A DNA stretch of 64,000 nt. It comes from Chiloscyllium plagiosum (taxonomy: Eukaryota). The DNA lies in the NCBI RefSeq assembly GCF_004010195.1, contig NC_057721.1, positions 44,719,240 to 44,783,239 on the forward strand, in the 5' to 3' direction. How positions within the stretch are numbered: position 1 is the stretch's first letter; every line of letters starts with the position of its first letter. The notes below the pieces were generated by a model, which saw only the letters and a program-made list of their open reading frames with translations, was not told the origin of the DNA and made no database searches. The position numbers and the translations under genes are program-made. Shown here one piece after another: positions 792 through 60,987 of this stretch.

Positions 792-2540
792 CTGAGGAGT
801 AGACAGATAGGAGGCTGGAAAAACACAGCAAGCCGGGCAGCATCAGCAGGTGTAGAAATAGACGTTTCGGATGTAACCCTTCTTCAGGACTGGGGGTGGC
901 TGTAGGGGCATCTGCAGATAAAGGGAGTAGCGCGGGCAGGGTGGTGAAGTGGGGATAGGTGAAGACAGGCAGAAAGTATGACCTGGTTGGTCAATAGGGG
1001 AATGGATCCAGTTGGTGGCTGGGAGGAGAGGGAGAGGCTAGGAAGGGTGTCGGGGATGGAGAGGGAGGTATGTCAAATTGGAGAACTCAATGTTGAGTCC
1101 TCTGGGCTGTTGGGTTCCCAGGCGGAAGATAAGGTGTTGTTCCTCCAATAGACGTTGTATTTGTTTTGGCAATGGAGGAGGCCAAGGATGGTCATGCCGG
1201 AAAGGGAGTGGGTGGGGAATTGAAATGGGTGGTGACTGGAGGTCCGATCGGCCCCTGTGGACCCGGCTGCGATGTTGAGTTTATGTTCGGTCTCCCCGAT
1301 GTTGAGAAGATCACACTGAGAGCACCTGATGCAGTAAACTAGGGTGGAAGAGAGGCAGGTTGGCCTGTCTCACTTGGAAGGATTGTTTGGGGCCCTGGAT
1401 GGAAGTGAGGGGGTGCTCTACTGGCATGTTTTGCACCTTTTCTAGTGGCAGGGAAGGTACCTGTATGTTCGGTGGCAGGGGTGGCGTGAACCAACGAGTG
1501 TCGGAGGGAACAGTCCTTATGGAATGCAGACAGGGGTGGGGAGGGGAAGATGTTCTTGGTGGTGGGGTCTAGTTGGAGTTGGCAGAAATGTTTGAGGAAG
1601 ATGTGTTGAATGCAGAGACTAGTGGGGTGCAACGCATCCAACGCGTCATTCTCAAACACTTCCACAAACTCCAACTAGACCCCCAACACTAAGAACATCT
1701 TCCCCTCCCCAGCCCTCTCTGCATTCCACAAGGACCATTCCCTCTGACACTCCTTGGTTTATGCCACCTCCGCCACCGAACATCCAGGTACCTTCCCCTG
1801 CAACCAGAAAAAAATGCAAAACCTGCCAGTACACCACCCACTCACCTCCATCCACGGCCCCAAACAGTCCTTCCAGTTGAGACAGAGCTTCACCTGCCTC
1901 TCCTCCAACCTAGTTTACTGCATCAGGTGCTCTCAGTGTGATCTTCTCAACATCGGGGAGACCGAACATAAACTCAACATCGCAGCCGGGTAAGCTTAGG
2001 GAAAGCTCACCGAGCATCACAGCCGGGTCCACAGGGGCCAACTGGGCCTCCCAGTCACCAGCCATTTTAATTCCCCTTCCCACATCCTTTCCAACATGTC
2101 CATCCTTGGCCTCCTCCATTGCCAAAACCACAGCGCCTATTGGAGGAACAACACCTTATCTTCTGCCTCGGCACCCTACAGCCCAGAGGACTCAACATTG
2201 AGTTCTCTAATTTCAATTAACCTCTCTTTCTATCCTCTGACTCCCCTACCAGCTCCTCCCCCATCCCCCACTGCTCCCTGCTACCAACTAGATTCATTCC
2301 TCCCATTGACCAACCAGGTCGTACCCTCTACCTGTCTTCACCTATTGCCCCTTGACTACCCTGCCCCGACCTCCCCCTTTTATCTTCAGCTCCTCCCCAC
2401 TCCCACCCCCAGCCCTGAAGGAGGGTTACACCTGAAATGTCGACTTCTACACCTCCTGATGCTGCCTGGCTTGTTGTGTTCTCCCAGCCTCCTGCTTGTC
2501 TACCTTAAGTTCCAGCATCTGCAATTTTTTTTGTCTCTGT
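792..2540. mobile_element. Penelope-like element, inverted (fold-back) pair of 3' halves: minus arm ~792-1630, plus arm ~1640-2540 with degenerate GIY-YIG endonuclease
   Basis: The plus arm reads LVYCIRCSQCDLLNIGET...PVTSHFN (PLE GIY-YIG). The minus arm is its reverse complement. A direct repeat TCAGATTAA at 783-791 and 2541-2549 is a candidate TSD. Both arms end in hammerhead-like motifs (861-890 minus, 2412-2444 plus). Confidence 0.8.
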
Positions 2541-2589
2541 TCAGATTAAGAGAGGGGTCCTGAGATAGAGGCTGGTCAGTTAGAGCAAT

Positions 2590-2935
2590 ATCAAATTGTG
2601 TTTTGTGGGTTTTTGCTGGAAGCACACTGGTTGCTGAATTTCTTACATTAAAATCATGATTACAATCTAAAAACTTCATTACAAAACGCTGTGAAGTGTT
2701 TTGTAATGAAGTGCTACATAAATGAAAGTGTTTCCAATACTGTCACAAGAATGCGATTTGGAATTGTTTACATCCCCAAGAGAGTAGATAGGGCCCTGGT
2801 TTACCATCTCATCTGAAAGATGGATAGCTCAAACTCCCTCGCTGAAGTGACAGCGTGAGATGATCTCCTAGAGTTCGATTTGAATTCACAACCTTCTACC
2901 TCAGCGATGTGGGCGCTACCAGCTGAGACAAGGCT
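2590..2935. mobile_element. Old DeuSINE/SacSINE1-like fragments next to the TRIM45 promoter (3' tail on + at ~2590-2730; tRNA head plus Deu domain on - at ~2750-2935)
   Basis: The minus strand has a tRNA-like A/B-box head followed by TCTTTCAGATGAGATGGTAAACCAGG, which resembles the recalled Deu-domain consensus. The plus segment ends GCTACATAAATGAAAGT, like L2/DeuSINE tails. Confidence 0.55.
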
Positions 2936-2979
2936 GCTGCTTACTGATATGTTGATTTTTCTGTTCGCTGTACAGATAT

Positions 2980-5116: not shown

Positions 5117-5334
5117 GAGAAAGTGAGGACTGCAGATGCTGGAAATCAGAGCTTAAAAATGTGCTGCTGGAAAAGTGCAGCAGGTCAGGCAGCATCAAAG
5201 GAGGAGGAGAATCGATGTTTCGGGCATAAGCCCTTCTTCAGGAAGCAGGGCTGAAGAAGGACTTCTGCCCGAAACGTCGATTCTCCTGCTCCTTTGATGC
5301 TGCCTGACTTGCGCTTTTCCAGCAGCACATTTTT
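5117..5334. mobile_element. Fold-back PLE-tail insertion with two outward-facing hammerhead motifs
   Basis: Inverted arms. TSD AAGTTTAATACTTAG at 5102-5116 and 5335-5349. CTGAAGA...GAAACGTC on + (5251-5282) and a CpG-decayed copy on - (~5211-5243). Confidence 0.8.
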
Positions 5335-7994
5335 AAGTTTAATACTTAGCCAGACAAGCAAAAAATAAGGCAAATGATGCAAAATGCATCAAAGTAGATT
5401 TTGAAGAGTCTTTTAAATTATGATATCAAGGTAGAGATTTAAATCCAGAGTTTCGGGCCCAGATAGCTGAAGGCACAGTCACCATGATGGAACAGTTAGG
5501 ACTGGAAATGCTGAAAGCAAGAAACTAGAATTAGAGGACAGCAGGAAGGTGGGACTGGAAGAGCTTACAAGGGTAGGCAGGGGTGAGGCTATATGTGAGA
5601 ATAAATATCTCAGAGGGTTGGGTGGCTGGGGGAGATAAGGAGAGATGAGACTTTGGAGTGATTTGAAAGTGAGAATATGTATTGCAAAATAGAAGTGTTG
5701 TTTAACCCCAAACCAAAATAGTCCAAAAATCACCAGATTGAACATGAATGGGAGGCTTGTTAGGGCTGAGTTCAAATAGTGACATCTCAGGGTAACAAAG
5801 CAGGTAGATGAAGTCTTTGCATCATTTGAGCTGAAACAGTGGTGAGGGTCAGATGATGTTACAGTCTGAATGATGCTGTGAATGCATGGATTGGAGCTGA
5901 TCTTGGCGTCAGGTGTGACATGAGGTTATGTACATCTGGTTTAATATTATACACTTGGATGGTGCTGGGTGGTAGAGTTATTGACAGGGAATGAATGCAA
6001 TGGTTTTGGTCTTTATAATATTCAGAAGGAGAACAGACAGTCTAATGCTGGAGAGGTCACGAGAAGTTGTAGTGTGGTAAAGCTGAGTCTCGCTGTTTGG
6101 ATGATGTACCTCACTGATAGCCTGTAGAAAAGAATAGGAAGGGGCCAGGTCTAGAGTGTGGGACTGGGAAGATAAACCATTGCAAGTGCTTCTCTGACAT
6201 TGATTTGAATAGTGATGTCCACATCCCAGGAGTGAATAATTAAAAAGGTCTTTGTCCCAGGAATCAACCCAATGAGCCTTCTGTGAACTGCCTCCAATGA
6301 AATCTATATCTCTTTAATGAGAAGTTCAAAACTGTACACAGTACCGTAGGGTGGTCTCACCAGTGCCCTAATGTGTTGGAGCGATACGTACCTACTTACA
6401 TATTACAGCCCATTTGCAATAATAGTCATTGTTCCATTTCCTATTCTAATTATTTGCTGTAACATATGGTGACACCCAGATCTCTCTGTACTGCAACATT
6501 CTTCCAGCTTTCCGCTTTAAAATAATATGCTGCTCTTCTTCCTACCAGCGTGGATAATTTTTTATTTCTCCCACAAAAGACTTTTGCTAAATTTATCCCA
6601 CTTAACTAACTAGACTATGTTTTCCAGCTTTCTGCTCCCTCCTCTTCTGGATAGGAGTTTTACATTTGTCATTTTTCAATCACCTGGGAACTTTTCAGAA
6701 TTTAGGGAATTTTGGAAGATTACAATCAATGCATCTCTTATCTCTGCAGGAACTTTGTCTGTCAGCTGTTAGTCTCATGAGTTTGTCAATTACTGTTTCT
6801 CAAGTGATTGTCTGTAATCCTCCCTCCTTTTTGCCTCCTGGTTTTCTTCTACTATAGAGATGGTTATTATTGTTTTCTCACAAGAATTTGAGATTTTACA
6901 AAAAAAAACTGCTGAAGAAACTCACCAGGTCTGGCAGTATATGTGGAGGGAGATACAGAGACAACCTTTTAAATCCCATTCTACTCTTCAGTAGAACTGA
7001 AGGGGGCTGGAAAAGTGAGCCTTGTGTTCCATTTTCATTCTGTGGGTGGAAAGGTAGGAGCGGTGATGGCAGAAAATGTAATTGAAATCTAATCTTGCTT
7101 GCATTTCTCTCTGGGTTTTCAAACTGCTCAAATTTAGAAAAATTATATCAGACACCTATAATTGAAGAATATGAAGTTTTGCAATGCAACACTATTATCC
7201 TATACTATACCTGTACTGACAAGTCTGATTCCTTTGCTGTTGATGTAAGAACATTGAAGCATAGTCTGATACCACTGTGTCCACCTGCAAGAGACAGTCA
7301 AAACTTAAAGATTCAAAAAGGACAATACTTGATTCACTGTTTTTAATTCACTGTTATACTGCTTGAACGTGTGTAATTTTGTTTTGATAATATGTTTAAT
7401 TGAATTTCACCAGCAGCTTCCCCTACTTTGCAAACAGAATGAATGTTAATGTAGTAGAAAAGCCGTAAATTAATGAGTGAAAATGAGTCATTCACCTGTT
7501 AGCTGTCTTTGATAGACAATGGACTGGGTGCTGGCAGGTGGCACTAGATTGGGTTGGGATATCTGGTCGGCATGGGCGAGTTGGACCGAAGGGTCTGTTT
7601 CTATGCTGTACGACTCTATGACTCTAAGGTAGAATCAACATATTCGTTCCAAGTCTCATCCATTTACTAGTTTTCCATTGCTAACATTATAATATATCAA
7701 TATTTACTTAAGCTATTCACTTTTGTTTTATATACTTATGGAAGCTTTTGTATTGATGTATTTTGCATTTAGTTTCATTATCTATTTTTCAATTTGTTTT
7801 TCAATCTCCCTTGGTTTGTTTCAAAACTTTTCCTAACTTCTTGCCAACTTCTAATTTCTGAAATTAACATGGTCATTCTAACAGATGAGAACCTTAACAA
7901 ACAATCCAGGTCTTTTTCAGTGTATAATTTCAGTTACATCACACTGTAAACCTTTGCTATAAATTCTGTGTCTCACAATCTTATACTCCACAAC

Positions 7995-8029
7995 CACCTG
8001 ATGAAGGAACAGCGCTCCGAAAGCTAGTG
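7995..8029 (+). ncRNA. Minimal type-I hammerhead ribozyme motif in a PLE 3' tail (~7880-8110), TRIM45 intron 1
   Basis: CAC-CTGATGA-A-GGAAC AGC GCTCC-GAAA-GC-TA^GTG: intact core, stem I CAC/GTG, palindromic stem III AGCT. Confidence 0.65.
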
Positions 8030-10500: not shown

Positions 10501-12719
10501 TTGTCGGAATCCCTTGGACACTTACATTCATCATGTTTTATCAGTAGCAAGAACAAATCATCACTCTATTCAGTCAGAATATTCAACAGGGTCAACATTG
10601 AATTAATCAGAAAGCTCATAACTGAGGCTGTAGAAACTTAAAAAAAAACTCTTTTCACATGAACTTTGCTTTGGTAACAGTGGTGAGACTGTCAGTGTTC
10701 TACAGAAACCGACAGCAGTTTTAGGAGTTCCCATGTGTGCAGAATAACGTGGAAATCCATTCGTTGCTGTCAGTGATAATAACAGAAAGTTCAGTAAATA
10801 ATCAGCAGTTCAGGAGCCTCGGTGGAGGGAGAAATAAAGACTGGAATCTTCACCTCCCTGAAAAGCAGCAGGGAAAGTATTGGGTGGGAATTTGATTGGG
10901 CAAGTTGGCATCGGGGGAGATCCTCACCAGCTTCCCAGCACGCCAACAGCCGGGACCCTTGACCTCTTCATGTCACTGCCACCATTAACTCCGTTCCTAG
11001 GTGGCAAAAACACTGGCCGCCTCCTCAATGGGTCAAAACCCTTGCAGCCAGATTAGTAAGTGGCAAGCCAACCCCCTGCCTTTGCTTCCAACCCTTTGAC
11101 TTTTGGCCTCTGACTGGCAGCTCCAAGCAGGCGGGGCATCACAGTCCCAGGTGGTGATCCTGGCCGAAAGCCCACCGAGTGATTTCTCCAAGCCTGACTG
11201 GTGGGCCTTTTGGTTCATCTTGATGGGTTTGGGGTCGGGGGCCCTCATTTATTCTTACCACTATCACCACGGTTACAGAAAATTCAGTCCAAGATTAATA
11301 TTTCAGGTCACAATCTTCCATTATAACTGGGCAAGTGAGAAATGTGAATATTTTAAGCAGTTGAAGAGTGGATAGGGCTTATTTTAAAGAAAAGAACAAA
11401 AGGGCAGGTCAGCGATAGGGTCGAAGGCAGGAGAAATTAAATGGCAAAAGTCTTGATGGTGCAAGGCAAAAGGGAGGTTTTAACATGACAAGTAAAGAAA
11501 CAAAAGATGTGTTTAATGGAGGTGTGAGCTTCAGAATCATGGGAAACTGTCATCTCAAAGGGTTTAAAAAAGAGAGAAAGCAAATATAGCAAAGTGAAAG
11601 CAAGCAAAGTTTCGATTGCAATTGCACCAGTGGAGGGCAGTGTATAACAGATGTTGCCACCCGTTGGGGTAGTGTGCTGTATATTGAACCCTAATATTCT
11701 GAGAATTGTACCAAATGTGAAAGTTTTTTTAAGGTACTTACTGTACCTCACTTCATCTGACTTTCAGACCAAGGTTGATAGAAAGTATGGACCAGGTTTC
11801 TATACCAACCAAGAATTATTATTTATTCCAAGTAATTCAACTTTAGCTGCATGGATATGAACTATTTACATATAACTAAAACTCTAATTCCCTTATAAAC
11901 TCCCCTTTATACACACCTGTACAAATAAATAGGAAAAATAGATTATTATCAGAGATAGAAAAAACTGCAAAGTCAATTGAGTGGTCTTTGTTTCCTGGTT
12001 CTAATGTTGAGGTAATTCCATAATAAAAACCAAAAGACCTGCGGATGCGAGAAAGCAAAAACAAAAACCGAAATTGCTGTAAAAGTTTCGCAGTTCTGAG
12101 GAAGGACAACTAGACTGAAATTTTACCTCTGATTTCTCTCCATAGCTGCTGCCAGACCTGCTTACCTTTTCCAGCAATTTCCTTTCTTATTTTGAGGTAG
12201 ACCTTCAGCTGGCCAGATTCCTGTGTTAGTCAGTTATCTTTCCCTGGATTACTTCTGCTGGTCGATTTTAAGAAATACAGAGTAACTGATTCAGTTGGAA
12301 AATGTCTTTGATGTATCATTTCAAAAGTCACAAGATATAGCAACTGCTGTAAGAAAAGTAATTGGTTTCCTTCAGGGTTTGAACTGATTTATTGACTGTT
12401 AGTTAGCTGAAAACTACAATCAGCTTCACTTGTAAACAACCCCTTGGTTTCTGATTGTCTGGACATTGCAGGAATCCAAAGCCACAAAAACAGAGTTCAC
12501 AACAGGTATTAAATTCCTTGTTGTGAACTTCTGCAGCCATCCTGGTAAATCATGTTTTTAAAAACAGCTCTTTCTCATTGCAGTTTCCGTTATCTGCCCC
12601 AGTATCACCTTTGTAGCTGGTATGATGTAGAGGGTGTAGGGCCCACAGATAGGCTATGGCCATGCTAACTTAACTGGATTTAACATCTCTTTCTACGACC
12701 TTCAAACCCATTGGTGGGG

Positions 12720-14710
12720 GAAACATTAAATCCAGAACATGGTTGCAGAGTGGCTAAGTTTGGGAAATAAATAATCCAAGGTTTAGAAGTGATGGGTAGA
12801 ATGGAAAAGGAGAAGGGGTTAGAACAAATAATAAATTATGGAATATATTCAATAGAGACAAGGAATAGCTGCCCAGCATATCAAGGAGTAGATTACTTTG
12901 TGTATAGCTTAGAAGCAACAAGAGGCAAATATCCCTAATGGGAGTACTTTATAGCCTCCATGTATGCTGCCAAATGGAATATAAATCAGGAAATTAGAGG
13001 GAGACATAACCAGGGTAATAAAGAAATCATGGGCATTTTCAATCAACTTTTTAAAGATTGTAACTAACAAGTTGCTAAAGGGGAAACCAGTGAATGTATT
13101 GTGCTTGGAATTTCAAACTTCATTCAATAAAGTGGCACATAAAAGGGTAATAAAGTGGCACATAAAAAGGTAATACCAAATATTAGACTCTTAGGATAGG
13201 GTCAATAGTCCTCATTAATGAATAGTGATTCTCCCAGACTGACGATACCCAGTCCTGCGTCTGCTCAACTGTTGTTGTTATTTCTCTCGCTGGGCTTGAT
13301 CTCCACCCATTGTTTACACCTCCTCCTCCCTCCACCCCTATCTTCAACATCTATACCAACCTTTTCCTAGTACACTCAGCCCTAAAGAAGGGTCAAAATC
13401 ATTTATTGTATCTGTTGCTCCCGATGCGGTCTCCTCTACATTGGGGAGACTGGGCGCCTCCTAGCAGAGCGCTTTAGGGAACATCTCCGAGACACCCGCA
13501 CCAATCAACCAAACCGCTCCGTGGCTCAACATTTCAACTCCCCCTCCCACTCTGCTGAGGACATGGAGGTCCTGGGCCTCCTTCACCGCCGCTCCCTCAC
13601 CACCAGATGCCTGGAGGGAGAACGCCTCATCTTCCGCCTCGGAACACTTCAACCCCAGGGCATCAATGTGGACTTCAACAGCTTCCTCATTTCCCCTTCC
13701 CCCACCTCATCCTAGTTTCAAACTTCCAGCTCCGCACTGTCCCCTTGACCTGTCCGGACTTGTCCGACCTGCCTAGCTCCTTTTCCACCTATCCACTCCA
13801 CCCTCTCCTCCCTGACCTATCACCTTCATCCCCTCCCCCACTCACCTATTGTACTCTATGCTACTTTCTCCCCATCCCCACCCTCCACTAGCTTATCTCT
13901 CCACGCTTCAGGCTCTCTGCCTTTATTCCTGATGAAGGGCTTTTGCCTGAAACGTCGATTTTGCTGCTCGTCGGATGCTGCCTGAATTGCTGTGCTCTTC
14001 CAGCACCACTGATCCAGAACCTAAAGAAGGGTCACTGGACCAGAAACATTAACTCTGCTTTCTCTTATTGTACTAGCAATTTCTGTTTTTTATTTTCGAT
14101 TTCCAACATATGCAGTTCTTTGATTTTCTTTGTATAAAATGGATTGGGGATTGGCTAATGGACAAGGAACATAAAGTAGGAATAAGTGAGGCATTTTGGG
14201 GTTAGTAGGCTTTAACTAGTGTGGTCTCAGAAGGATCAGTACTTGGACAACAGTTTTATACAATCCATTGACTTCAATGAGGAGGATTTGTCATGTGCAA
14301 GAGTTAACTGATGGTACAAAAGTAAATAGAAAAGAAGCTGAGTGAAAGTCACAAGGACAATGCAAAATGATTCAGAAAATTTAGCTGATTGAATATAAAA
14401 TGGAGAAGTGTGAAGCTACCTACTTTGATGGGAGTAGAAATATTTTAAAAGGGTGAGAGACTGGTAAATGTTTGCAATCAGAGACTTGAGAATACTTGTC
14501 CATGAATCACAAAGTTGACATGCTTTAGTAAGTATTTAGAAGAAATGATTGTATGTTAGACTTTGGTATGTTATAAAGGGATTCGACTATAAGAGTAAGT
14601 AAATGTTATAATAATTATAGAGAGCAGGGCTTTGTTGAGACCACACCTGAAATATTGTATATAGTTGCAGTTTCCTTGCCTAAGGACTGACATTCCAGAG
14701 GCAGTAACAG
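12720..14710 (+). mobile_element. Old CR1 ORF2 remnant (~12720-13230 and ~14140-14710) interrupted by PLE insertions
   Basis: Degenerate endonuclease and RT motifs (VYLDF..AF.KV.H-like, GV.QGSVLG-like, RPHLEYC-like) with many stops. Confidence 0.55.
13400..14020 (+). mobile_element. PLE 3' fragment: GIY-YIG C-terminus, 3' UTR and hammerhead motif (13925-13960)
   Basis: Translates as ..CSRCGLLYIGETGRLLAERFREHL...VAQHFNSPSHSAEDMEVLGL...RLIFRLGTLQPQGINVDF. Motif ATTC-CTGATGA-AGGGCTTTTGCCT-GAAAC-GTC^GATT. Confidence 0.8.
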
Positions 14711-17211: not shown

Positions 17212-17949
17212 AACAAAAATAGAAACTGCTACAGTATTTCAGCAGGTCTGGCAGCATCTGTGGAGAGAAATCAGAGTTAACATTTTGGGTCAAGTGATCC
17301 TTCCTCATGAGAATTTGTATAGGGTATAAGCAGGTTGGGAAAGAGTTAAGTTCTGAGTTTTGTGAAACCAAGATGTTTAGCTGAGCATGACTCAGATCAG
17401 ATAAGAACTTAGTTAACAATGGGGTGCAAGGGTAATGGGTTAACAAGTGGAAAAGCAGTCATTATGTGGAGCCATTAAACAATATTGGAAGCATTCCGTA
17501 TGTAAGGTCCGTTTAACAAGGTGAAAAGTATTCATTATGTGAAGCCAGTTAAAGTTAAGAACATTCATTGTGTAACACCAGATGGCTTAATCTTTGCTAA
17601 TGACACTCGCTGATTATAACAGTCACCCAATCAATATATATGTTGCCTTATCTGGATGCTCCTTCCTGTAAAATGACTATATGATTAATTAAAAAACTGC
17701 TCTTCCAGAGAAGACTGAAAGCTCATGTCCATGTGCACATGGGCGATCATTCTCTCTCTCCCTCGAGGACCCGGAATAAAGATGGAGGTAAAATTATACT
17801 GTGTCTGAGTAGTTTCCTTTGACTGAGAGAGGAAACGGGACTACACTCAGGGCTCTGATTTCTCTCCACAGATGCTGGCAGACCTGTTGAATTTTTATAG
17901 CACTTCCTATTTTTATTTGTGATTTACAGCATCCAGTGTTCTTTCAGTT
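17212..17949. mobile_element. Fold-back PLE-tail insertion hosting a solo LTR
   Basis: Inverted arms at ~17212-17307 and ~17850-17949. 14-bp TSD TGAATTGTTCCTGA at 17198-17211 and 17950-17963. Confidence 0.75.
17308..17845 (+). mobile_element. Solo LTR (ERV- or Gypsy-type), 538 bp
   Basis: TG...CA termini with a 4-bp TSD CTCA (17304-17307, 17846-17849). Imperfect CATTATGTG repeats in the U3-like part. AATAAA at 17775-17780. Confidence 0.7.
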
Positions 17950-28533: not shown

Positions 28534-28584
28534 TAAATAGAAAGCAGGAGTTTTCAGCAGTGCTTCGCCTGAGGCCCACTGAAG

Positions 28585-28903
28585 ATTAGATTAGATTACA
28601 TTACAGTGTGGGAACAGGCCCTTCGGCCCAACAAGTCCACACCCACCCGCCGAAGCGAAACCCACCAACACCCCTACATTTACCCCTTTTTAACCTAACA
28701 CTACGGGGAAATTTAGCATGGCCAATTCACCTGACCTGCACATCTTTGGACTGTGGGAGGAAACCGGAGCACCCGGAGGAAACCCACGCAGACACGGGGA
28801 GAATGTGCAAACTCCACACAGTCAGTCGCCTGAGTCGGGAATTGGACCCGGGTCTCTGGCGCTGTGAGGCAGCAGTGCTAACCACTGTGCCACCGTGCCA
28901 CCC
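28585..28903 (-). mobile_element. HE1-like V-SINE inserted in the PLE hammerhead core
   Basis: Full SINE on the minus strand with an (ATTAG)n tail. GAAGAT is duplicated at 28581-28586 and 28914-28919. Confidence 0.9.
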
Positions 28904-29073
28904 CCTAATAGGAGAAGATGTTACCTAATAGGGTGATGAAACGTCTGGAAATGAACCTTCCAGCTCAGTGAGCAAACATACATCTAAAACCTCAACCTGC
29001 GCTACAAATCTTCTCAAAACTTGCTAATATATTAAGTATAACATAACTTTGGTAACTGCTATTCTTTTCCCAG

Positions 29074-42020: not shown

Positions 42021-42439
42021 GTAAGGGAAAATACCTCGATGAAACTCCCTACAAGTTTGGGTTAGGCATTGAATTGGCCTCTAAAAAAGCACATTTTGTA
42101 CAGCTGAAAGTCCTACATGCCTCACTTGTTCTGTTTATGACCTATTAACATAAGAATGTGAGAAAGTCTGTAATCAAGCCATAAAGAGCTCCCTCCAGGC
42201 TGTTCTGACAGCGGTGTGGAACATACTCCACTGTCTGGTGTTCTGCCCAGTAGCGTCAGTTGAACAATCCTTTTTCAACACAAAAACGGATATTGTTGGC
42301 GAATCTGCACGTCTGGCAGTATCTGTGAGAGGATAGCAGAGTTAACGTTTCGAATCCAGTTACTTCCTCAGAACTCGTCCTTTTCTACTAGTCAACCATT
42401 CCCAGTGAATGGCTCGGCCTCGAATTTCACTTCGAACTT

Positions 42440-43462
42440 CGGGTGACCATCCTCCAAGGTGGACTTTGGGACAGGCAGCAGAGGAAAGTGGCCGAGCAGA
42501 GGCTGATAGCTAAGTTCGGTACCCATAGAGAGGGCCTCAACCGGGACCTTGGGTTCATGTCACATTACAGGTGGTCACCATTGCACTACACACACACACA
42601 GATATCCCTACACACACACACTCTCACATACACACGGACACAGGTACACACAGACACGCACACAGACACTCACACAAACCCTTATAGACACACACTCCCA
42701 CACTCACACATGCACCCCCTCACAGACTTAAGACACTCTGCACTCACTACACACACACACANNNNNNNNNNNNNNNNNNNNNNNNNNNNNNNNNNNNNNN
42801 NNNNNNNNNNNNNNNNNNNNNNNNNNNNNNNNNNNNNNNNNNNNNNNNNNNNNNNNNNNNNNNNNNNNNNNNNNNNNNNNNNNNNNNNNNNNNNNNNNNN
42901 NNNNNNNNNNNNNNNNNNNNNNNNNNNNNNNNNNNNNNNNNNNNNNNNNNNNNNNNNNNNNNNNNNNNNNNNNNNNNNNNNNNNNNNNNNNNNNNNNNNN
43001 NNNNNNNNNNNNNNNNNNNNNNNNNNNNNNNNNNNNNNNNNNNNNNNNNNNNNNNNNNNNNNNNNNNTCTCACTTTTTAGATTAGAATCAATCTAAACAT
43101 CATGGCATAGACAGAGAACACAGGGGGTTAACACCTTCAACATATTGTCTAGCTATCACCATTGTTAACAGCTAACCCGAGAATGCAACTTTAAAAAAAA
43201 GGTTTTGTGATTTACACATGAAAAAAGTGAAACTATCACTGTATTCTAACAGATGAAAGGCTTAACAGACAATCAATTTTTCAATGTATAATTTCAGTTA
43301 CATCACGCTGTAAATTTTTGCTATAAATTCTGTGTTACGATCAAGCCCTCCACTATCACCTGATGAAGGAGCGTCGCTCCGAAAGTTAGTGTGCTTCCAA
43401 TTAAACCTGTTGGACCATAACCTGGTGTTGTGTGATTTTTAACTTTGTACACCCCAGTCCAA
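42440..43462 (+). mobile_element. PLE 3' fragment (GIY-YIG C-terminus, CA-rich microsatellite, assembly gap, tail with hammerhead motif at 43357-43391)
   Basis: Reads VTILQGGLWDRQQRKVAEQRLIAKFGTHREGLNRDLGFMSHY. The tail is homologous to 7880-8110. Motif CAC-CTGATGA-A-GGAGC GTC GCTCC-GAAA-GT-TA^GTG. Confidence 0.75.
42762..43067. other. Assembly gap (306 N) in a CA-rich repeat
   Basis: Run of N. Confidence 0.99.
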
Positions 43463-45923: not shown

Positions 45924-46117
45924 TAGGAGAAAGTGAGGACTGCATATACTGGAGATCAGAGTCGACGAGTTTGGTGCTGGAAAAGCACAGCTGGTCAAGC
46001 AGCATCCGAGGAGCAGGAGAATAAGCCGTTCATCATTCCTGATGCCCCTAACATCGATTCTCCTCCTCCTCGGATGCTGCCTAACCGGCTGTGCTTTTCC
46101 AGCACCACACTCTTTGA
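45924..46117. mobile_element. Fold-back PLE tail inserted in an older V-SINE
   Basis: 15-bp TSD CCATGCTAAATTGCC at 45909-45923 and 46118-46132, with inverted arms. Confidence 0.8.
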
Positions 46118-46186
46118 CCATGCTAAATTGCCACATAGTGCCCAGGAATCTGCAGGTTAGGTGGGTTAGCTCTTGTAAATGCGGGG

Positions 46187-48123: not shown

Positions 48124-48251
48124 GGAGAAAGTGAGGACTGCAGATGCTGGAGATCAGAGCTTAAAAATGTGTTGCTTGTAAAGCGCAGCAGGTCAGGCAG
48201 CATCAAAGGAGCAGGAGAATCGACATTTCGGGCATAAGCCCTTCTTCAGGA
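48124..48251 (-). mobile_element. 128-bp PLE tail beginning at the hammerhead motif
   Basis: 14-bp TSD ATGTATAGGTCATA at 48110-48123 and 48252-48265. Confidence 0.85.
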
Positions 48252-50212
48252 ATGTATAGGTCATACTCTTAATTGATTTTTATTTACCATTCCTCATTGG
48301 CTGGGCATGTTGACACGTTAAGTATTTATGTAAAGCACAACAAGATGACACCATCTCATTTCCTCTGCCTGTTGCCATGGTGACCAGATTATAAAAAAGA
48401 ATGTCCATGCCTTCATTTGGAAAGGACAACATTTGACTTGGGTTTGAAATCAAAGGCAAAGTAGTTTTACTTACATTTCTCTACTCTGGAAAATATCATT
48501 TTGATGACAAGGTGGAGCAGGGGAAGTGGCCGGATGGGAGGGGCTGGGCAGTTGTCATGATGATGGCTATTTGTCAGTCTGAGGCCCACTGCAGCTAACA
48601 GGAATAATTCCCAATTTCTTCCTGTCTGGAATTGAAACTCATAGGTTACAGTATGCTGGAATTCATTACAGACATCTAGGAGGTGGGATGAGGATTGAAG
48701 GCAAAATGTTTGGGATTAAAAAAGCTGAGAAAGACACAGAGGATGGTTTGTCTATGGAATGAGCTGCCAGAGGAGGTGCTGCAATCTGGTAGAATCACAA
48801 CACTGAAAAGGCATCTGGATGGATGCACGAATAGGAAGAGTTTAGAGAGAAATGGGACAAATGCTAACAAATGGGACTCAGCATGGACAAGTTGGACCCA
48901 AGATTCTGTTTCTGTGCTGTACAACTCTCCAACATTATGACTGTACTTAGACTTCTACGATTGTTTTGGCTTTATCCATGGAATTTGCAATAAAGCTTCT
49001 TTTTTTATTTTGAGTTACTTTATCTGGATAAATTTAGTTTGCCATTGTTCTGCTCATTTATAATTTTTATGCAAATTGCTCTGTATTGTTTGAGTTGCTT
49101 CTTTTGATGTGATTATGCCTTCTACTCATCAGCTTTTAACACTTCATATTAATAACTCAAATTCAATCATGCACATTAGAAATAGTGGTGATTTCACCTT
49201 GGAAACATGGGACATCCCTTCCAGTGCTTCCACCAATCTACTCCCCCACACTTTGTGATCAGATCTCTGTGAAGATTTTGTTTGCCACCTTAAATTTATT
49301 CCTTATATCAATTTCTAGGGTTGGATGTAAATGTCGCAAAATTTGGCAAAAGCAACTACCTAAGCTGCACCATTGTTCCTGAGATATTCTGAGTATCTGT
49401 TGATAGATAGACCACTTTTTTAGATTAAACTTTAACAGGTCATGCATTTCTTTATATTTATATATTGTGATTACAATAGATTGAAAAATGATCACACTTC
49501 TGAAACACTTACTGCTGAAAGTTTGTTTCTTAATACTAACTTTCTTAAATTTAATTTTCATAGATGTGATTCACAAGTATGAATTCTATGAAAGTAGGTG
49601 CATTATTTTATTGTTATTTTTCACTTTCCCGTCAGAATTGCCAGTTGATAATTTAATTATGTCTCATCATAAGTGAGGGTGGGCAGGAATAAAAGAAATG
49701 CAATGAGACAAAAAGGAACGTGCGTATTTGGAAAGGAAAGGAACTGACGGCAGTGAGTCCTCACAAGATGACTCTGCAGAACTTGACAATTGTGTTAAAA
49801 TTGTCAAGAACACCCAAAGAAATATTTTATTTTCATATTTTCCAAATGAAATATTATGCCTAGAATAAATAAATAATATTCAAAGATGAGCCTTTAATTC
49901 CTTCCAATTCTTTCTGAACTAGTTCTTGCAACTTGGATTAACTATTAATTGCTCGAAATTCTTTCAATGGAATGATTACCTACATCACCAAATGGCTGCT
50001 GTGCACTGCAGACATGACTTCAGAAGTCAGCTGCCTGCAACAGGACAGGTTGCAAGAAATGTTGGTGCATGAACCAATGCAGTCATTACTATCTATATTG
50101 TATGCAATACCAACATCTGTAGCACATGTGCCACTGAAGAGGAGGCTGAGGAGACAAGAAAAGGCTGGGGCTTTGGCAGGAGCTGGGACAAAATCCACTG
50201 CCAGGAGCAGGA

Positions 50213-50719: not shown

Positions 50720-53500
50720 TATACAAGATTGAATTTCTACCTTAACATCACTTCCCACTCTATTGTCATACTTCTTAGTTATATCCTTTGATTCTGCTTG
50801 TGCTTTAAGACTATTGATCTTGGCCTTAAGCAAACTAATAGACCAAGCATCCATAGTCCTCTGGGATTTAAAAAAATTCCAACTATGTGATCTTTCAATA
50901 CCTCAATCTTAAATCTTATCCTGAAATTATCAGCCTTAGTCATAGCCTCTCTAGGCAGTGGAAAGAACTCTCCTTTCACTCTGTCCGGCTCTCTAAGACA
51001 TTTAAACATTTCAATGTGAATACATCTTTTCTAAACTTTGGAGGATATAGGCCAATTTTACATGCTTTTTCCTCAGGGAACCGTTTTCATTCAGAATTCA
51101 GCCTAGTACATGCACTATGCAACACCTCCAAGGTAACTAACATCCTCGCTTAAGTAAGGACACAAAGAAACATCAAAAATAGGAGGAGGAGTCAGCCATT
51201 CAGCCCTCTCAGCCTGCTGCACGAGTCAATATATTCATGGCTGATCGTCAAACACAGTACCCTGTCCTGATTTCTCCCCATAACCTTTGATCCCTTTAGC
51301 CACTAGAACTATATCTGTCAAGTTTTTGAAAACATTCAGTGGTTTGACCTCAACTGCTTTCTGTAGCAGATCAGTCCACAAGCTCACTAGTTTCTCCTCA
51401 ATGCAAGGCACTGTACAATTGAAGGAAGACATCCTTGCTCCTCTACTCAAATCCTCCCACTATGAAGACTAACAATAACATTCCCTTTCTTCACTGCCTG
51501 CTCCACCTGCATGCTTATTTTCAGTGACTGTTCTACAGGATACCCAGATCTCCCTGCACCTCCCCCTTTCCTAATCTATCACCATTCAGATGGTAATCTG
51601 CCTTACTGTTTTTACGACCAAAAAGGATAACCTCACATTTATCCATATTATATTGCATCTACCACACATTTACCCACTGACTCACTTATCCAAATCATAC
51701 TGAAGCATCTGCTTACAGCTCATCTTCCCACCCAGTTTTGTGCTCTCTCCAAACTTGGAGATATTCCATTTGGTTCCCTCATCTAATCATTAATATACAT
51801 TCGTGAATAGCTGGGGTCCAAGCACCGATCCCATTCGATACTGCCTGCCAGTTGGAAAAAGACCTGTTTATTCCTACACTCTGTACCCTGTCTGGCAGCT
51901 CATTCTCTATTCATGCCAGTGCATCATCCCCAATCCCACTTTAATTTTGCATGCAAATCTCTTCTATAGTACCTAATTGAAAACCTTCTGGAAGTCCAAG
52001 TAAACCATATCCACTGACACCCCCACATGATCCCTATTAGTCACATCCACAAAAAATTCTAGTGGATTTGTCAAGCATGATTTCCCTTTTGTAAATCCAT
52101 GCTGAATCTGTCCAGTCTTGTCACTGTTTTTCATTTTGTTATTAAGTGTTCTGCGATTAAATCTTTAATAAGGGACTGTAGCAATCTCAAGTGAACCAGC
52201 CTATACTTCCCTGTTTTCCCTTTAGTTCTTTATTTTAAATAGTTGGGTTACATTGGGTCTCCTCCAATCTGTAGGAACTTTTCCAGAGCCTATAGAAGCT
52301 TGAAAGATGACCACCAATGCACCCATTATTTTTACAGCCACTTCCTTAAATACTATGCGATATAGATTAATCAGGCCTGGAGATTTATTGGCCTGTACTC
52401 CCAGTAATTTCTCCAACACTATTTCCCTATTAACATTGATTTCCTTCAGTTCCTCCCTCTCACTAGACCCTGTTTTCCCCAACATTTTTGTCATGTTATT
52501 TATGTCCTTTGTGAAGACAGAACCAAAGCATGTTTTCAACTGGTCTACCATTTCTCTATGCACAGTACACTAGATGCAGTTTTGTCAAAACCCTATCATC
52601 AAGAAAAGTGACCATCATCCCAGAGGACTGCTCTCTGATTACAGATCAACAATTGGTGGTGGTTTAATCTGAGGGTCACCACAGCTCAGGCAAGGGGGTG
52701 AGCTTGTGAAGGCAGGACCTTCGAGTTAAGCCCACCTGGTGTGGGAATGGAACCAACTCTGTTTGTATCACTCAGTATCACAAACCAGCTAACTAGCTGT
52801 ATTTTTTTTGTTGTCTTTCTTGCTCTAGTTCAATTATTCCTGCCTGTAAATTGATTGATCTGAATAGACTGAAAATGTGTTGCTGGAAAAGCGCAGCAGG
52901 TCAGGCAGCATCCAAGGAGCAGGAGAATCAACGTTTCGGGCATGAGCCCTTCTTCAGGAAGCAGGGCTCATGCCTGAAACGTCGATTCTCCTGATCCTTG
53001 GGTGCTGCCTGACCTGCTGCGCTTTTCCAGCAACACATTTTCAGCTCTGATCTCCAGCATCTGCAGTCCTCACTTTCTCCTGATCTGAATAGACTGTAGG
53101 TCTAGACATCCCAAGTGCAAAATCACCAGAGACTGCCTGGTTATGCATTAAAAATGGGAAATACAAACATAGGCACATAGAAAATAGGAGCAGGAATAGG
53201 CCCTTCTGCCCTTCAGGTCTACTCTGCCAGTCAATACGATGGTGATTAATCAGTACCCTTTTTCCACTTTCACCAGTTGTCCTTTCATTCTGAGAACTAC
53301 ACCTAACTTCTTTTTGAAAACATTCACTCTTTTAGCCTCAACTGATACTTGTGGGAGAGAATTCCATACACTTACCATCCTCTGGGTGAAGGAATTCCTC
53401 CACATCTCAGTCCTAAATGCGCTACCTTGTATCCTTAAACTGTGACCTTTGGTTCTGGACTCCCTGGGCATCCAGAACATCCTCCCTGCATTTGACCTGA
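50720..53500 (-). mobile_element. Cluster of degraded CR1 LINE fragments (~50720-51160, ~51170-52560, ~53165-53500)
   Basis: Minus-strand ORFs ANKSPGLINLYRIVFKEVA..KVPTDWR and ESRTKGHSLRI...NSFTQRMVSVWNSLP. Confidence 0.75.
52872..53080. mobile_element. Fold-back PLE-tail insertion
   Basis: Near-perfect inverted arms. Direct repeat TGATCTGAATAGACTG at 52856-52871 and 53081-53096. Confidence 0.85.
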
Positions 53501-55900: not shown

Positions 55901-57058
55901 TATTCTTCACACACAAAGCCATTAAGTTGAAGAACCTCCACAAAATAATTGTCTGGAACCTGCAGGAGTCCAGGAGAGTAAATAGGTAAGGAAGAGAAAG
56001 AAACACAGACTGAAAAGAAAGAGACCATAAAACGATAAAATACCAGAGCTGAATTAGGCCATCCAGTCTACCAAGCCAAGAGTGCGGTGCTGGAAAAGCA
56101 CAGCCAGTCACGCAGCATCTGAGGAGCAGGAGAATTGACGTTTCGGGCATAAGCACTTCATCAGAAAAGCCCAGCATCTGCAGTCCTCACTTTCTCCATT
56201 CAGTCTGTAGCTTGATGTTCATTCCCTTTTATTTTTGTTAGTCTGTTTTGCTAACACAGGGTAATAGTAGGATGTGTGACAACATGAAAGGCCCTCTTAA
56301 ATGTCCAATTGTTGCTCTTAAATGCTCACAGTGTAGTGCTTATGCTGAAAATGCAATTTGATTATTTACGAAACAACTCTCCTTTATGCCTTCAATAACA
56401 GAAAAATCAATCCTAGCTCTACTCATTCTTTGGAAATTATGGCTCAACAGATATGTTGTCCATCCAATAACCTGCCCTGGAAATCGATGTTTTATAACTA
56501 TCTTCTCTGGTGTTTTGCAGAATGAGGGAAGGCTGTTTCTGAACTATTATATAGCTATATTATTGATCTTACTTACAACCGACTGTTCAATCATTTAAGG
56601 AACTCAATACTCTTGTTTTTATACAAAATGAATACTGAAATGATTTTAATGTTAATTTAATGTAAATTCATAGATGGGGAACAACTCTGAAAAATATGTC
56701 AGTAATAGACTAATGTCTACTAGTATATGCTTATGAAACATATTAATTATTTTAGTCATTATTTGCATAAAAGCTTATTTGATTGGAACTAATTAACCTT
56801 GGTGAATTGTAATTACAATAACCGTGAATAAATGCAATTGATGAGATAATTATTTCCATTTGTTGTCCATTAATAAATTCATATTTAACAATAATGTTAT
56901 CAAATAAAGTGACAGCCAACTTAATCCTTTGTCATTGTTGAGAAAGTATTAAATGGTGAGAAACTATGATTTACACTCAGAACACACATATTTGTAATAA
57001 TTAATGAATTAAGTGAAGACAATTTGTTAGTAGCATGGGTCAGTATAATGTATTGTAG

Positions 57059-57169
57059 GAGAAAGTGAGGTCTGCAGATGCTGGAGATCAGAGCTGAAAA
57101 TGTGTTGCTGGACAGGCAGCATCCAGGGAACAGGAGAATCGACGTTTCGGGCATAAGCCCTTCTTCAGG
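57059..57169 (-). mobile_element. Short PLE tail with intact hammerhead motif (57137-57172)
   Basis: TSD AATGTATTGTAG at 57047-57058 and 57170-57181. The minus strand reads ATTC-CTGAAGA-A-GGGC TTAT GCCC-GAAAC-GTC^GATT. Confidence 0.85.
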
Positions 57170-57204
57170 AATGTATTGTAGCTATGACTTAATACGTCTT
57201 GTAC

Positions 57205-57510
57205 TAAGAGTTGAAAAATGTGGTGCTGGAAAAACACAGCAGGCCAGGCAGCATCCGAGGAGCAGGAGAATCGACGTTTCGGGCCTAAGCCCTTCTTCAG
57301 GAATGAGGCTGGTGTGCCAAGTGGGCTGAGATAAAAGGTAGGGGGGAGAGAATTTGGGGGAGGGGTGCTGGGAATACGATAGGTGGAAGGAGGTGAGGGT
57401 GATAGGCCGGAGAAGGGGTGGGGGCGGAGAGGTTGGGAAGAAGATGTCAGCTCAAGAGGGCGGTGCTGAATCCGATGGTTGGGACTGAGATAAGGTGGGG
57501 GGAGGTGAGT
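57205..57510 (-). mobile_element. PLE 3' UTR fragment with intact hammerhead motif (57269-57304)
   Basis: Homologous to 13700-14010 and 60660-60985. Confidence 0.8.
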
Positions 57511-58122: not shown

Positions 58123-58320
58123 GAGATGGAAATGTGTTGCTGGAAAAGCGCAGCAGGTCAGGCAGCATCTAGGGAACAGGAGAATCGACGTTTCGGGCAT
58201 TAGCCCTTCTTCAGGAATGAGGAAAGTTGGTCCAGCAGGCTAAGATAAAAGATAGGGAGGAGGGACTTGGGGGAGGGGCGTCGGAAATGTGATAGGTGGA
58301 AAGGGGTCAAGGTGAGGGTG
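58123..58320 (-). mobile_element. PLE 3' UTR fragment with intact hammerhead motif (58183-58218)
   Basis: 14-bp TSD AGGCATGGATGTTG at 58109-58122 and 58321-58334. Confidence 0.85.
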
Positions 58321-59214
58321 AGGCATGGATGTTGCTTCATGATCAGCAATGCAGTGATGGTGGCGACAACATGTTTAATAAACTAGAATAGAACATCATT
58401 TTACAGTTCCGGAACACTTCACAGATCCACTTGATCATTTTAGTCTGGTATCACAAATCATTCCAATTTCCAACCAGTTTTTGCACCCCAGGTTGTTTAT
58501 ATAAATGAGAAACAATGGTAAGGTGGGAGGGCTGAGTGGTCTCAACAATAGTCCATGAGTCATTGGCCTGTAGTTTTCTCCACCTTGATGTACCTCCAAT
58601 TAGCCATAAATTCCTTTGGACTCAGGAGGATGGGAAAAAACAGTGGTTGCAAGAGCTGCTCCTTTTTTTAAGTGTTGGAGGTGCTTTCGTCAAATTCCAG
58701 GAGCAGTAATTACTGTTTTATATGTTGTTGCATTGTTTTGGAACTTTGGGGAAAAATAGTCAAAACAACGACACTTTTAAAAGGGAGAAAGACAGACAAG
58801 TGGCAGCGAGCATGAAGTCAGTGAGAGAGAGAAAGAAAGAAACCTACACTGCTAACTGACAGCAATGAGTCTGCATAATTGCTGCCTTTGCTGTTTGAAT
58901 TCATGTATCTCTGGACATTGGAATGCGTCTCAGAAAAATTAACAAACAGCAAAATTCACAGGTGACCTTGGAAGAACCTGTGTGGGACAGCTCACAACAC
59001 AGATAAGTGTATAGTTTTTAACGTGTAACCTTGCTGTAAGTCTACAGTAGTGAGCAGAGTGGGCTCTTTCTTGATTATATGTTTTATGGAAATTTGTCTC
59101 TTGATTAAATTTTAAAAATATAAACTGTAAGTACTAGGTTAGCCTGGAGCACTTTTTTTTTAGAGCAAAAAGATGGTGCTATTTTCTGGGTGTGTAGATT
59201 GTGAAGCAACAAAG

Positions 59215-60600
59215 ACTGCCTTTAGCACAGTGATATGCTCTTGCTTTCCATTGGGAGTTTAGAGACAGTTTCCAAATCACTGATGATTATGTCTGCAGGA
59301 AGTGTCTTTGGTTGTGAATCCCTTCAGATTGAATGGATCGGTTGAAGCAGCAGTTAGAGGCAATAAGGAATTTACAAGAGCCAGGGATATGATGGATGGC
59401 AATTATAGGAAAGGAGAAAAGCCTCAGATACAGTCAGGTAGATGGGTTATCATGAGGAAATGTAGGAGAGGTAGGCAGGTAGTTCAGGAGTCACCTGTGG
59501 CTATCCCTATTTAAAACAAGTATGCTAAATTGGAAAATGTAGGGGGTGATAGACTCTGAGGGGAATATAGCACGAATAGCGAAGTTTCCGGTATCGCAAC
59601 AGGTTCTACTGTAATGAGGGGTATTTCAGGTTCCAAGCAATTGATTGTGACAGGGGACTCTGTAGTCAGAGACACAGGTCGACCTTTCTGTAGCCAGCAG
59701 TGAAAAATCAGAATGGTGTGTTGCCTCTCTGGTGCCAGAATCAATAATATCTCAGAGAGGTGCAGAATGTTCACAAAGGGGAGAGGGACTAGCAGGATGT
59801 AATTCTACACATTGGAATTAATGATATGGGAAGGGAAAAGGATGAGATTCTGAAGGAAGAATATAGAAAGTTGAGCAGGAATTTAAAAAGGAGGTCTGTG
59901 AGGGTAATAATATCTACTCCTGTAATAATAGCTACGTGCTAGTGAGGGTAGGAATAGGACGATAGAGCAGATGAATGCGTGGCTGAGGAGCTGGTGCAGG
60001 GGAGAAGGGTTCAACTTTTGGATCATTGGAATCTCTTCTGGGGTAGAAGTGACCTGTACAAGAAGGATGGACTGCACCTACATTGGAATGGGACTAATAT
60101 ACGAGCAGGGAGATTTGCAAGAGCTGCTTGGGAAAATTTAAGCTCGTAAGGTGGGGGGGGGGGGGTGGAACCCAGGGAAATAGTTTCAAAAGAGATCATT
60201 CTGAGACTGGTACAGTTGGGAAAGAGAGCAAGTCAAACAGTCAGGGCAGGCAGGAACAAAGCAAAAAACAAGGTAGGACTGAAAAATTAAACTGCATTTA
60301 TTTCAATGCAAGAGGCCCAACAGGGAAGGCAGATGAACTCGGGGCATGGTTAAGAACACGGGACTGGAATATCATAGCAATTACAGAAATGTGGTTCAGG
60401 GATGGACAGGATGGCAGGTTAATGTCCCAAAATACAAATGCTATAGAAAGGATGGAAAGGGGGAGCAGGAGAGGAGGGGGAGTGGTATTTTTGATAAGGG
60501 ATAGCAATATTGCTGAACTTAGGATATTCTTAGGAGTACATTCAGCAAACTTATTTGGGTGGAACTTAGAAATAGGAAAGGGATTGTATAATAGAAACCC
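59215..60600 (+). mobile_element. 5' part of a CR1 LINE: decayed ORF1 (zinc-finger/leucine-zipper plus SGNH esterase) and start of the ORF2 endonuclease
   Basis: ORF1 motifs DDYVCRKC, IVTGDSVVR, VCCLSGARI, VILHIGIND, NAWLRSWC, DLYKKDGLHL. ORF2 start LNCIYFNARG...IIAITEMW. Confidence 0.85.
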
Positions 60601-60634
60601 ACAGTGGGACAGAAAGGGACAGAGTATACAAGGT

Positions 60635-60987
60635 GACCCTCCAACCACAAGGGATGAACTCAGATTTCTCCAGTTTCCTCATTTCCCCTCCCCCTACCTT
60701 GTCTCAGTCAAATCCCTCAAATTCAGCACCGCCTTCCTAACCTGCAATCTTCTTCCTGACCTCTCCACCCCCACTCCACTCCGGCCTATCACCCTCACCT
60801 TGACCTCCCTCCACCTATCGCAATTCTAACGCCCCTCCCCCAAGTCCCTCCTCCCTACCTTTTATCTCTGCCTGCTGGACACACTTTCCTCATTCCTGAA
60901 GAAGGGCTTATGCCTGAAACATTGATTCTCCTGTTCCTTGGATGCTGCCTGACCTGCTGCGCTTTTCCAGCAACACATTTTCAGCTC
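60635..60987 (+). mobile_element. PLE 3' fragment with decayed hammerhead motif (~60892-60927)
   Basis: Homologous to the 13650-14010 and 58123-58320 tails. Confidence 0.75.

Follow-up and report, generated by a model that had tools for sequence, protein, structure and literature searches.

Our combined findings suggest, with good confidence, that the hammerhead ribozyme motifs scattered through a 64-kb stretch of the genome of the shark Chiloscyllium plagiosum (contig NC_057721.1, positions 44,719,240 to 44,783,239; hereafter the window) are minimal type-I motifs in the pseudo-long terminal repeats (pLTRs) of Neptune- and Poseidon-type Penelope-like elements (PLEs), that the copies are short, 5'-truncated and likely inert, and that the parent elements would cleave as dimers and be copied from uncut RNA. 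The core, the stems, the family structure, the PLE protein remnants upstream, the target site duplications (TSDs), the inverted pairs and the two alternative 3' ends can be read directly from the DNA. In this shark genome, the motifs are the minimal hammerhead ribozymes (min-HHRs) that Cervera and De la Peña (2014) described for PLEs, and thus of a known kind. The only part that we did not find in print is the clustering of the 5' ends of copies at the front edge of the ribozyme.

Hammerhead motifs recur throughout the window

We searched the window for CUGANGA followed by one extra base, stem II, GAAA, two bases of any kind and UH. This descriptor matched 14 perfect-core motifs, compared with a mean of 0.15 and a maximum of 1 in 20 dinucleotide shuffles; the CUGANGA and GAAA boxes and U16.1-H17 are present in all 14. 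Seven more copies are decayed but near-complete (2415, 6991, 14021, 17308, 25727, the split 28579/28914 and 40380), bringing the total to 21, or one per 3.0 kb, counting the unconfirmed candidate at 40380, and a further six stubs lack part of the motif. A first-pass annotation of this DNA had reported about 20 recurring cores at about one copy per 3 kb; both figures were borne out, and all the coordinates it quoted fall on such motifs. With one core change allowed, the descriptor gave 22 matches versus 5.3 in shuffles, a level that is partly noise, and decayed copies were therefore kept only if their flanks match a family. Every core base and pairing (G·U allowed) is retained in 7 of the 21 motifs (13929, 43360, 48249, 52957, 57168, 57300 and 58214), and a core base or pairing has been lost in the other 14.

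Generic searches recovered little of this. A stricter descriptor with three contiguous stem I pairs found only 2 motifs, since family A (see below) is lost to it through a U·U in stem I. No hammerhead family was among the 11 matches at E ≤ 5 in an Rfam search of the window, which were hairpin-like microRNAs only, below gathering scores. Trained on 8 A and A' copies, a covariance model found 13 A/A' motifs and one D motif (E ≤ 0.0003) and neither B nor C at E ≤ 5; it is too sequence-bound and so unsuited to testing other families. Exact-pattern scans of viral and metagenome contigs yielded zero copies.

Five families and three lineages

The motifs could be sorted into five families (A, A', B, C and D), with statistics that rest on the 64-kb window plus one read mapping. 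Family A has ten perfect-core copies and a GGGC/GCCC stem II; in its stem I, two pairs are followed by a U·U, seen in 9/9 copies carrying the position, and then by a single pair. In family A' (887, 2415), G-C replaces this U·U and U-A tops stem II. Family B (7998, 43360) combines a CAC/GUG stem I and a five-pair stem II with G-C at 15.2-16.2 and a CUA site, and family C (25727; 28579/28914) a CCA/UGG stem I with a seven-pair stem II. Family D (12096, 14021, 17308, 42371, 6991) is marked by a GUU site; the 5' strand of its stem I, AGUU, is supported by two copies, both at inversion junctions, and the sequence upstream of 14021 differs. The extra unpaired base between A9 and 10.1 is A in A, A', B and 4/5 D copies and U in C, and was also found in the perfect-core matches when the descriptor left it free. 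In all five families G10.1-C11.1 is the majority pair, or is seen as its C-to-T decay. The palindromic 15.2-16.2 pair is C-G in A, A', C and D (paired in 11 of the 14 perfect-core motifs over all families), and helix I is short, with 3-4 pairs in every family other than A.

These families revise the types proposed in the first-pass annotation. Its ATTC/GATT motifs with GGGC/GCCC are real, but their stem I is no full duplex, the third pair being the U·U. Of the two copies given as CAC/GTG, GGAGC/GCTCC and AGCT, 7998 has the AGCT but a stem II mismatch, and in 43360 stem II is complete but AGTT stands in place of AGCT. The decayed GTT/AAC, GGGTC/GACC type corresponds to the much decayed copies of family D, although 14021 and 17308 lack the quoted GTT strand. 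The GTC, AAGCTT type at 40377-40408 is a candidate sixth type, one worn, unconfirmed copy with a changed core (CTGGTGA), at most 2 pairs in stem II, no stem I 3' strand and a predicted fold that is not a hammerhead, and no second copy or PLE remnant was found for it within the window. Of the claimed minimum of five families, five can indeed be built, A' having been overlooked before. However, the module downstream of the ribozyme is common to A, A' and D, which makes these one related Neptune-like lineage, so that the independent lineages number three, not five.

Stems co-vary between families. A cross-family MAFFT alignment misplaced C and D, and a script was therefore used to assign pairs by position. 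When each family is represented by its commonest letter (and by the pairing letter for two-copy ties), 34/35 positions pair, the exception being the U·U of family A. The descriptor leaves stem I pairs 1-3 and 15.2-16.2 free; here 19/20 are paired, against a permutation mean of 11.4 (P 1.5e-4). The signal persists when A, A' and D are counted as a single lineage, with 20 or 21 of 21 paired (P 1.7e-4 or less). The tie rule and the few copies (one to two each in A', B and C) mean that these P values are on the optimistic side. Individual copies plainly show C-G, A-U and U-A at stem I pair 1.

Inserted copies gave a different picture. In a comparison of 13 family A arms, the core and stems depart from the majority at fewer non-CpG sites than the sequence downstream (5/264 versus 43/592, P 0.001), whereas private non-CpG differences show no clear deficit there (5/264 versus 17/592, P 0.49), and CpG sites are changed in 17/94. 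Parent sub-families have varied outside the ribozyme and retained the ribozyme itself, and inserted copies decay neutrally, within the low power of the sample. Selection is visible between lineages only, not on inserted copies. Thus the earlier argument from compensatory changes to selection on the fold holds between families, where the stems co-vary, but not for inserted copies, which show no excess conservation.

The motifs lie at the ends of Penelope-like elements

Remnants of reverse transcriptase (RT) and GIY-YIG endonuclease lie upstream of the A, A', B and C motifs, directly for A, A' and C and across an assembly gap for B. The remnant at 13392-13715 shares 88% identity with a Chiloscyllium protein that combines RT, a CxxxxCxxC linker and GIY-YIG, and the 13929 motif follows it by ~210 nt. 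The remnant at 25932-27104 matches RVT_1 (E 5e-9) and GIY-YIG (E 8e-5), and the whole family C insertion around it is flanked by a 13-bp TSD. Judging from the CxxC linker in their nearest relatives (P0002, P0031), A, A' and B would be Neptune-type, with Nematis remaining as an alternative. The assignment to PLEs made in the first-pass annotation is thus upheld: the motifs match the published min-HHR point by point and are sited in PLE 3' end modules.

TSDs of 12-16 bp were found at 8/20 intervals searched, along with three 8-9-nt matches. The insertions are 5'-truncated, and inverted pairs consist of one tailed and one tail-less end, the optional tail being 30-40 nt; PLE inverted pairs with a tail at one end only have been described (PMC8557442). 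Short and long copies form one continuous sequence. A full element with two pLTRs and an intact open reading frame (ORF) was not found in the window, which holds only broken remnants.

The two copies of family C each open a frame at an AUG made up of A9, the extra U and G10.1, and in A, A' and D a candidate start codon lies ~18-22 nt after the cut site. A 22-codon frame, MLPDLL.FSS...QHLQ, is common to A, A' and D (48124-48207 minus, 4957-5056 and 2441-2540), with several third-position differences, and its MLPDLL.FSS bases also form a conserved nested stem-loop. This region could be the start of the ORF, an RT-binding structure, or both; no database protein could be tied to the frame, and it starts none of the six relatives examined. 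In family D (4950-4980; 17255-17285 minus), the interval from the cut site to the ATG resembles a branch point, pyrimidine tract and CAG acceptor, and the acceptor AG is not retained in A or A'.

Many copies begin at the front edge of the ribozyme

We then compared where copies begin, counting offsets from core C3 (position 0), with the predicted family A cut between +27 and +28. The 5' ends of 6 of 11 family A insertions lie between -12 and +1; of the others, four extend upstream by 107 to about 540 nt and one begins at +35, and none of the 11 starts at the cut site, +28. This clustering has a P of 0.003 at a generous chance of 0.15 per insertion; two of the six edge-starting insertions can be read as starting at -3 or at -10/-12. 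Since many copies begin at the 5' edge of the ribozyme and span the cut site, uncut RNA is the likely template.

Two DNA contig sets (X1, perhaps from the window's own source, and X13, from another species) and two RNA runs were mapped to the long copy at 60700-61000 at 80% likeness, with ~60,000 records mapped per DNA set. Among the six loose ends listed per run, the two commonest of the 5' side fall before 60892 (-4; 228 and 266 contigs) and before 60901 (283 and 279 contigs), where the clipped letters follow the element to about -4. Flanks at both are mixed and AT-rich (agreement 0.32-0.34). Contig depth climbs four- to five-fold over 60887-60908 and is nearly flat in the cut-site bin. Sub-families with a different upstream sequence would also clip near -4, and a second depth rise at 60931-60952 may reflect related families or shorter stubs. 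No reads from RNA run X22 mapped to 60700-61000. In the other RNA run, X21, one loose end before 60888 holds 166 reads with a single flank (agreement 0.89), which points to one well-expressed host transcript elsewhere carrying a copy that would start at -8.

The initiator consensus is YYANWYY. A word resembling it, with its A at -4, is found in 5/6 long A and A' copies and also at other upstream places; none of the seven B, C and D copies tested (three of them D) has it at -4. Clustering of 5' ends at the ribozyme edge was not found in the literature searched, although the supplements of the 2014 study and of the study on the Anolis element PAc (see below) may show 5' boundaries or shark copies, and the Penelope literature on strong-stop or template switching contained none among the matches listed.

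A possible mechanism and its alternatives

The motif of an active parent element would have to dimerise in order to cleave, probably aided by the element's protein, with the 4-nt palindrome at 15.1-16.1 pairing with that of a second copy to make helix III; such protein-aided cleavage by the parent would be why each lineage keeps the fold. Reverse transcription would start on uncut RNA, some 60 or 100 nt past the cut site and within the nested downstream stem-loop or shortly after it, giving the two 3' ends. The complementary DNA (cDNA) would often end at the 5' edge of the ribozyme, most likely since the RNA begins there, leaving ribozyme-headed stubs of 90-130 bp that would decay neutrally after insertion.

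Several observations weigh against this reading. Only five families are available, three of them with the one to two copies each given above. The link of family B to a PLE endonuclease crosses an assembly gap, and for family D the window offers the shared module but no separate protein remnant. The family A monomer does not have the hammerhead as its lowest-energy fold, its stem I has just two pairs before the U·U, and the fold of the 57300/57168 dimer lies ~17 kcal/mol above the lowest one (core contacts unmodelled); the unfavourable monomer and dimer folds would fit a need for help in cleavage. The 2,856 reads of X21, a single-cell RNA run, come from both strands without a pile of starts or ends and give no direct support to the RNA-start step, although fragmented polyA RNA makes this a weak test.

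A more specific and rather doubtful version of this mechanism takes the ribozyme as the head of the PLE messenger, with its first paired base as the capped start, the stubs as strong-stop cDNAs of uncut RNA and self-cleavage as an off switch. If true, the strong-stop step would resemble the first step of retroviral reverse transcription, full elements would arise by a jump from the 5' end to the 3' pLTR, stubs of 90-130 bp would number hundreds of thousands, and cleavage would serve to remove the cap (A, A', D) or the start codon (C), not to make templates. A plausible competitor, if one we would not call probable, keeps the same elements and attributes the clustering to junction chemistry, that is, to microhomology of the target end to the element's CATT, a stall at a core hairpin or self-complementary cDNA ends in the head-to-head pairs. 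Both TSD-flanked short copies share 3-4 nt between target and element at the 5' junction, a competing hairpin is predicted to overlap -2 to +10, the junctions of two inverted pairs are those readable at -3 or at -10/-12, and the Anolis endonuclease favours ATT (PMC11167929). However, the ATT just past the cut site has no comparable depth boundary, and the initiator-like word at -4 in the long A and A' copies also counts against this reading, though the word recurs upstream and is absent at -4 from the B, C and D copies tested.

Other alternatives concern what the motifs are. It is unlikely that the motif is kept for a non-cutting role, such as promoter, translation start or protein binding, with the hammerhead vestigial in these lineages. 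The start codon of family C lies inside the motif, stem I of family A is weak, insertion in vitro survives cleavage mutations in the Anolis element, whose cut site shows no RNA read ends (PMC11167929), and Naiad PLEs thrive without hammerheads (PMC8557442), but lineages with unrelated flanks have all retained both catalytic boxes, U16.1-H17 and three helices, a combination unnecessary for a promoter. We give slightly less credence still to a separate non-autonomous family, akin to short interspersed nuclear elements (SINEs) or to non-LTR retrozymes (LTR, long terminal repeat), spreading through ribozyme-cut, circularised RNA. The fixed boundaries and great abundance of the short units would suit it, as would the derivation of animal retrozymes from pLTRs (bioRxiv 10.64898/2026.07.22.740005) and the contigs that join +81..+91 back to about -3/-4, which would make head-to-tail units; yet the tandem joints listed rest on 1-4 contigs each without a tandem array in the window, the units begin upstream of the core and not at the cut site, and short copies are continuous with long ones. 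It is highly improbable that the host maintains single genomic copies as active ribozymes for processing its own transcripts, even with four perfect cores in sense orientation in TRIM45 introns and 2,856 of about 13 million X21 RNA reads on the element, given that core and stems show no excess conservation after insertion, that 14/21 motifs have lost a pairing or core base and that the reads come from both strands. Of the perfect cores in these introns one is antisense, and there is no hint that sense copies are purged.

Motif load and significance

The perfect-core density in the window is one per 4.5 kb. Were the window typical, a ~3-Gb genome would carry some 10^5 to 10^6 motifs; this load is an extrapolation from the window because summed contig depth is no copy number. 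The very large genome-wide load expected in the first-pass annotation is therefore retained as an extrapolation, but one made up mostly of dead monomers, as follows from inserted copies being without excess conservation. The stock of hammerhead motifs in shark genomes may exceed all others known by a wide margin, and would supply enough natural variation for a strong covariation model. As the class is already described, finding the motifs in itself changes little. As to what the PLE hammerhead does, copies that start at the front edge and not at the cut site indicate that cut RNA is not the template.

Other features of the window

The features are collected in Table 1. The window is rich in repeats. 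TRIM45 exons span 3850-31049 on the plus strand (91% to a Stegostoma protein), with an immunoglobulin V-set exon downstream at 41624-42148, also on the plus strand. The pair 57300/57168 is the sole pair of intact same-strand neighbours in the window. The 5' part of the 14021 motif is displaced because a family A element inserted there (15-bp TSD); at 13381-13395/14020-14034, one PLE has thus landed in the ribozyme of another, within the catalytic core of family D.

Several inverted structures stand out. The structure at 42280-43482 is head-to-head, with a short arm of family D and a long arm ending in a family B module; it includes an assembly gap, no TSD was found for it, and it is possibly a chimera of two families. 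Separate head-to-head insertions at 5236-5256 and 52946-52966 have identical unusual junction letters, which suggests a sub-family with another upstream sequence hairpinning over the core, or a palindromic parent copied whole. At 46023-46059, each arm has lost part of the ribozyme between short direct repeats, leaving the junction palindrome imperfect. Long inverted repeats lie at 35379-36229 and 45878-46359; they seem to consist of a non-PLE, SINE-like repeat, and at 35379 the arms measure 212 nt and are 96% complementary.

Table 1 Ribozyme motifs and element remnants in the window (min-HHR, minimal hammerhead ribozyme; in brackets, the position by which the text names a motif).
Feature	Position	Strand	Remarks
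Family A' min-HHR (887)	857..891	-	outer end of large inverted PLE remnant, ~799-2540
Two inverted Neptune-type linker/GIY-YIG remnants	1166-1635; 1691-2190	-; +	ending in A' motifs
Family A' min-HHR (2415)	2411..2445	+	A9 to G; other arm of ~799-2540 remnant
Family A min-HHR, perfect core	5210..5245	-	15.2-16.2 broken by CpG decay; arm of head-to-head insertion 5117-5337, 15-bp TSD
Family A min-HHR, perfect core	5251..5282	+	lacks native stem I 5' strand; other arm of insertion 5117-5337
Family D motif, much decayed (6991)	6959..6995	-	
Family B min-HHR, CUA site (7998)	7995..8029	+	TRIM45 intron 1, sense
Family D min-HHR, perfect core, decayed stems (12096)	12092..12128	+	
GIY-YIG endonuclease remnant	13392..13715	+	upstream of 13929 motif; GIY-YIG E 1.5e-5 (at 13395)
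Family A min-HHR, CUGAUGA sub-family (13929)	13925..13960	+	3' end of Neptune-type remnant; TRIM45 intron 2, sense
Family D motif, decayed (14021)	14021..14054	+	5' part at 13378-13395
Family D motif, decayed (17308)	17275..17308	-	
Family C min-HHR (25727)	25691..25730	-	G12 to A; A9-U-G10.1 = AUG opening a frame
RT and GIY-YIG remnant, Penelope/Poseidon type	25932..27104	+	no CxxC linker; between two family C motifs
Family C min-HHR, split (28579/28914)	28576..28948	+	~330-bp SINE-like insert; 6-bp duplication 28581/28914
Candidate sixth type, AAGCTT palindrome (40380)	40377..40412	+	single worn copy, unconfirmed
Family D motif (42371)	42340..42375	-	perfect core and stem I; stem II damaged
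C-terminal PLE endonuclease end	42434..42571	+	93% to Chiloscyllium protein; upstream of 43360 motif
Family B min-HHR (43360)	43357..43391	+	all pairings retained
Junction of two head-to-head family A arms	46023..46059		both start at ribozyme 5' edge; insertion 45924-46118, 15-bp TSD
Downstream module of A, A', D	48124..48217	-	nested stem-loop, open frame MLPDLL.FSS, tail
Family A min-HHR (48249)	48218..48253	-	heads ~130-bp insertion with tail, 14-bp TSD; 5' end -5 to -2
Family A min-HHR, H17 = U (52957)	52926..52961	-	arm of head-to-head insertion 52869-53081, 16-bp TSD
Partial family A motif	52958..52987	+	second arm of insertion 52869-53081
Family A min-HHR, perfect core, decayed stems	56133..56168	-	5' end -3, adjoining inverted tail
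Intact family A min-HHR (57168)	57137..57172	-	heads short insertion, 12-bp TSD
Intact family A min-HHR, long copy (57300)	57269..57304	-	132 nt upstream of 57168 motif
Intact family A min-HHR (58214)	58183..58218	-	copy extends to -107; 13-bp TSD
Family A min-HHR, CpG decay, long copy	60892..60927	+	reference for read mapping

Comparison with known systems

The published min-HHR has an extra base after A9, G10.1-C11.1, a palindromic 15.2-16.2 and a short stem I, and its PLE dimers cleave weakly in vitro (PMC4209133; review PMC6765202). As in that study, the motifs of the window have a type-I layout without loop 3 or a stable helix III, form several co-varying families in one genome, and are mostly single motifs of truncated elements with some close opposite-strand pairs (PMC4209133). 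They differ in the U·U of family A stem I and in the clustering of 5' ends, which is undescribed in the examined parts of the study (PMC4209133). About 4,000 min-HHRs were counted there in coelacanth and 9,000 in Xenopus tropicalis, with another descriptor (PMC4209133), against the 10^5 to 10^6 extrapolated here if the window is typical; one supplement table of that study contains no shark term, and 'hammerhead ribozyme' was absent among the matches listed in the shark literature. An expansion of PLEs in shark introns has been reported (bioRxiv 10.1101/443036).

The non-LTR retrozymes of animals, found in one chondrichthyan, are similarly non-coding, hammerhead-bearing and related to pLTRs (bioRxiv 10.64898/2026.07.22.740005). 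However, they are tandem units each with a ribozyme, whereas those of the window are scattered as monomers or as head-to-head pairs and have TSDs; no tandem ribozyme units were found in the window, and head-to-tail joints are rare in the contigs. In Drosophila Penelope, the start site lies further upstream and an intron ends at helix I (PMC2377424; PMC4209133), so the arrangement would differ by clade.

The closest functional comparison is with PAc, the Poseidon element of Anolis carolinensis, whose ribozyme cleaves only with the element's protein, is dispensable for insertion in vitro, and whose template is uncut RNA (PMC11167929). Cleavage has been demonstrated for PAc and is predicted for the motifs described here. 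The families A, A' and B also differ from PAc in being putatively Neptune-type, with a CxxC linker, and A, A' and D in having the candidate start codon ~18-22 nt past the cut site. Nonetheless, the ribozyme of PAc likewise sits at the junction of pLTR and ORF, its ORF begins at stem II as in family C, and its two downstream RT start sites yield an optional tail, similar to the two 3' ends seen in the shark copies (PMC11167929).

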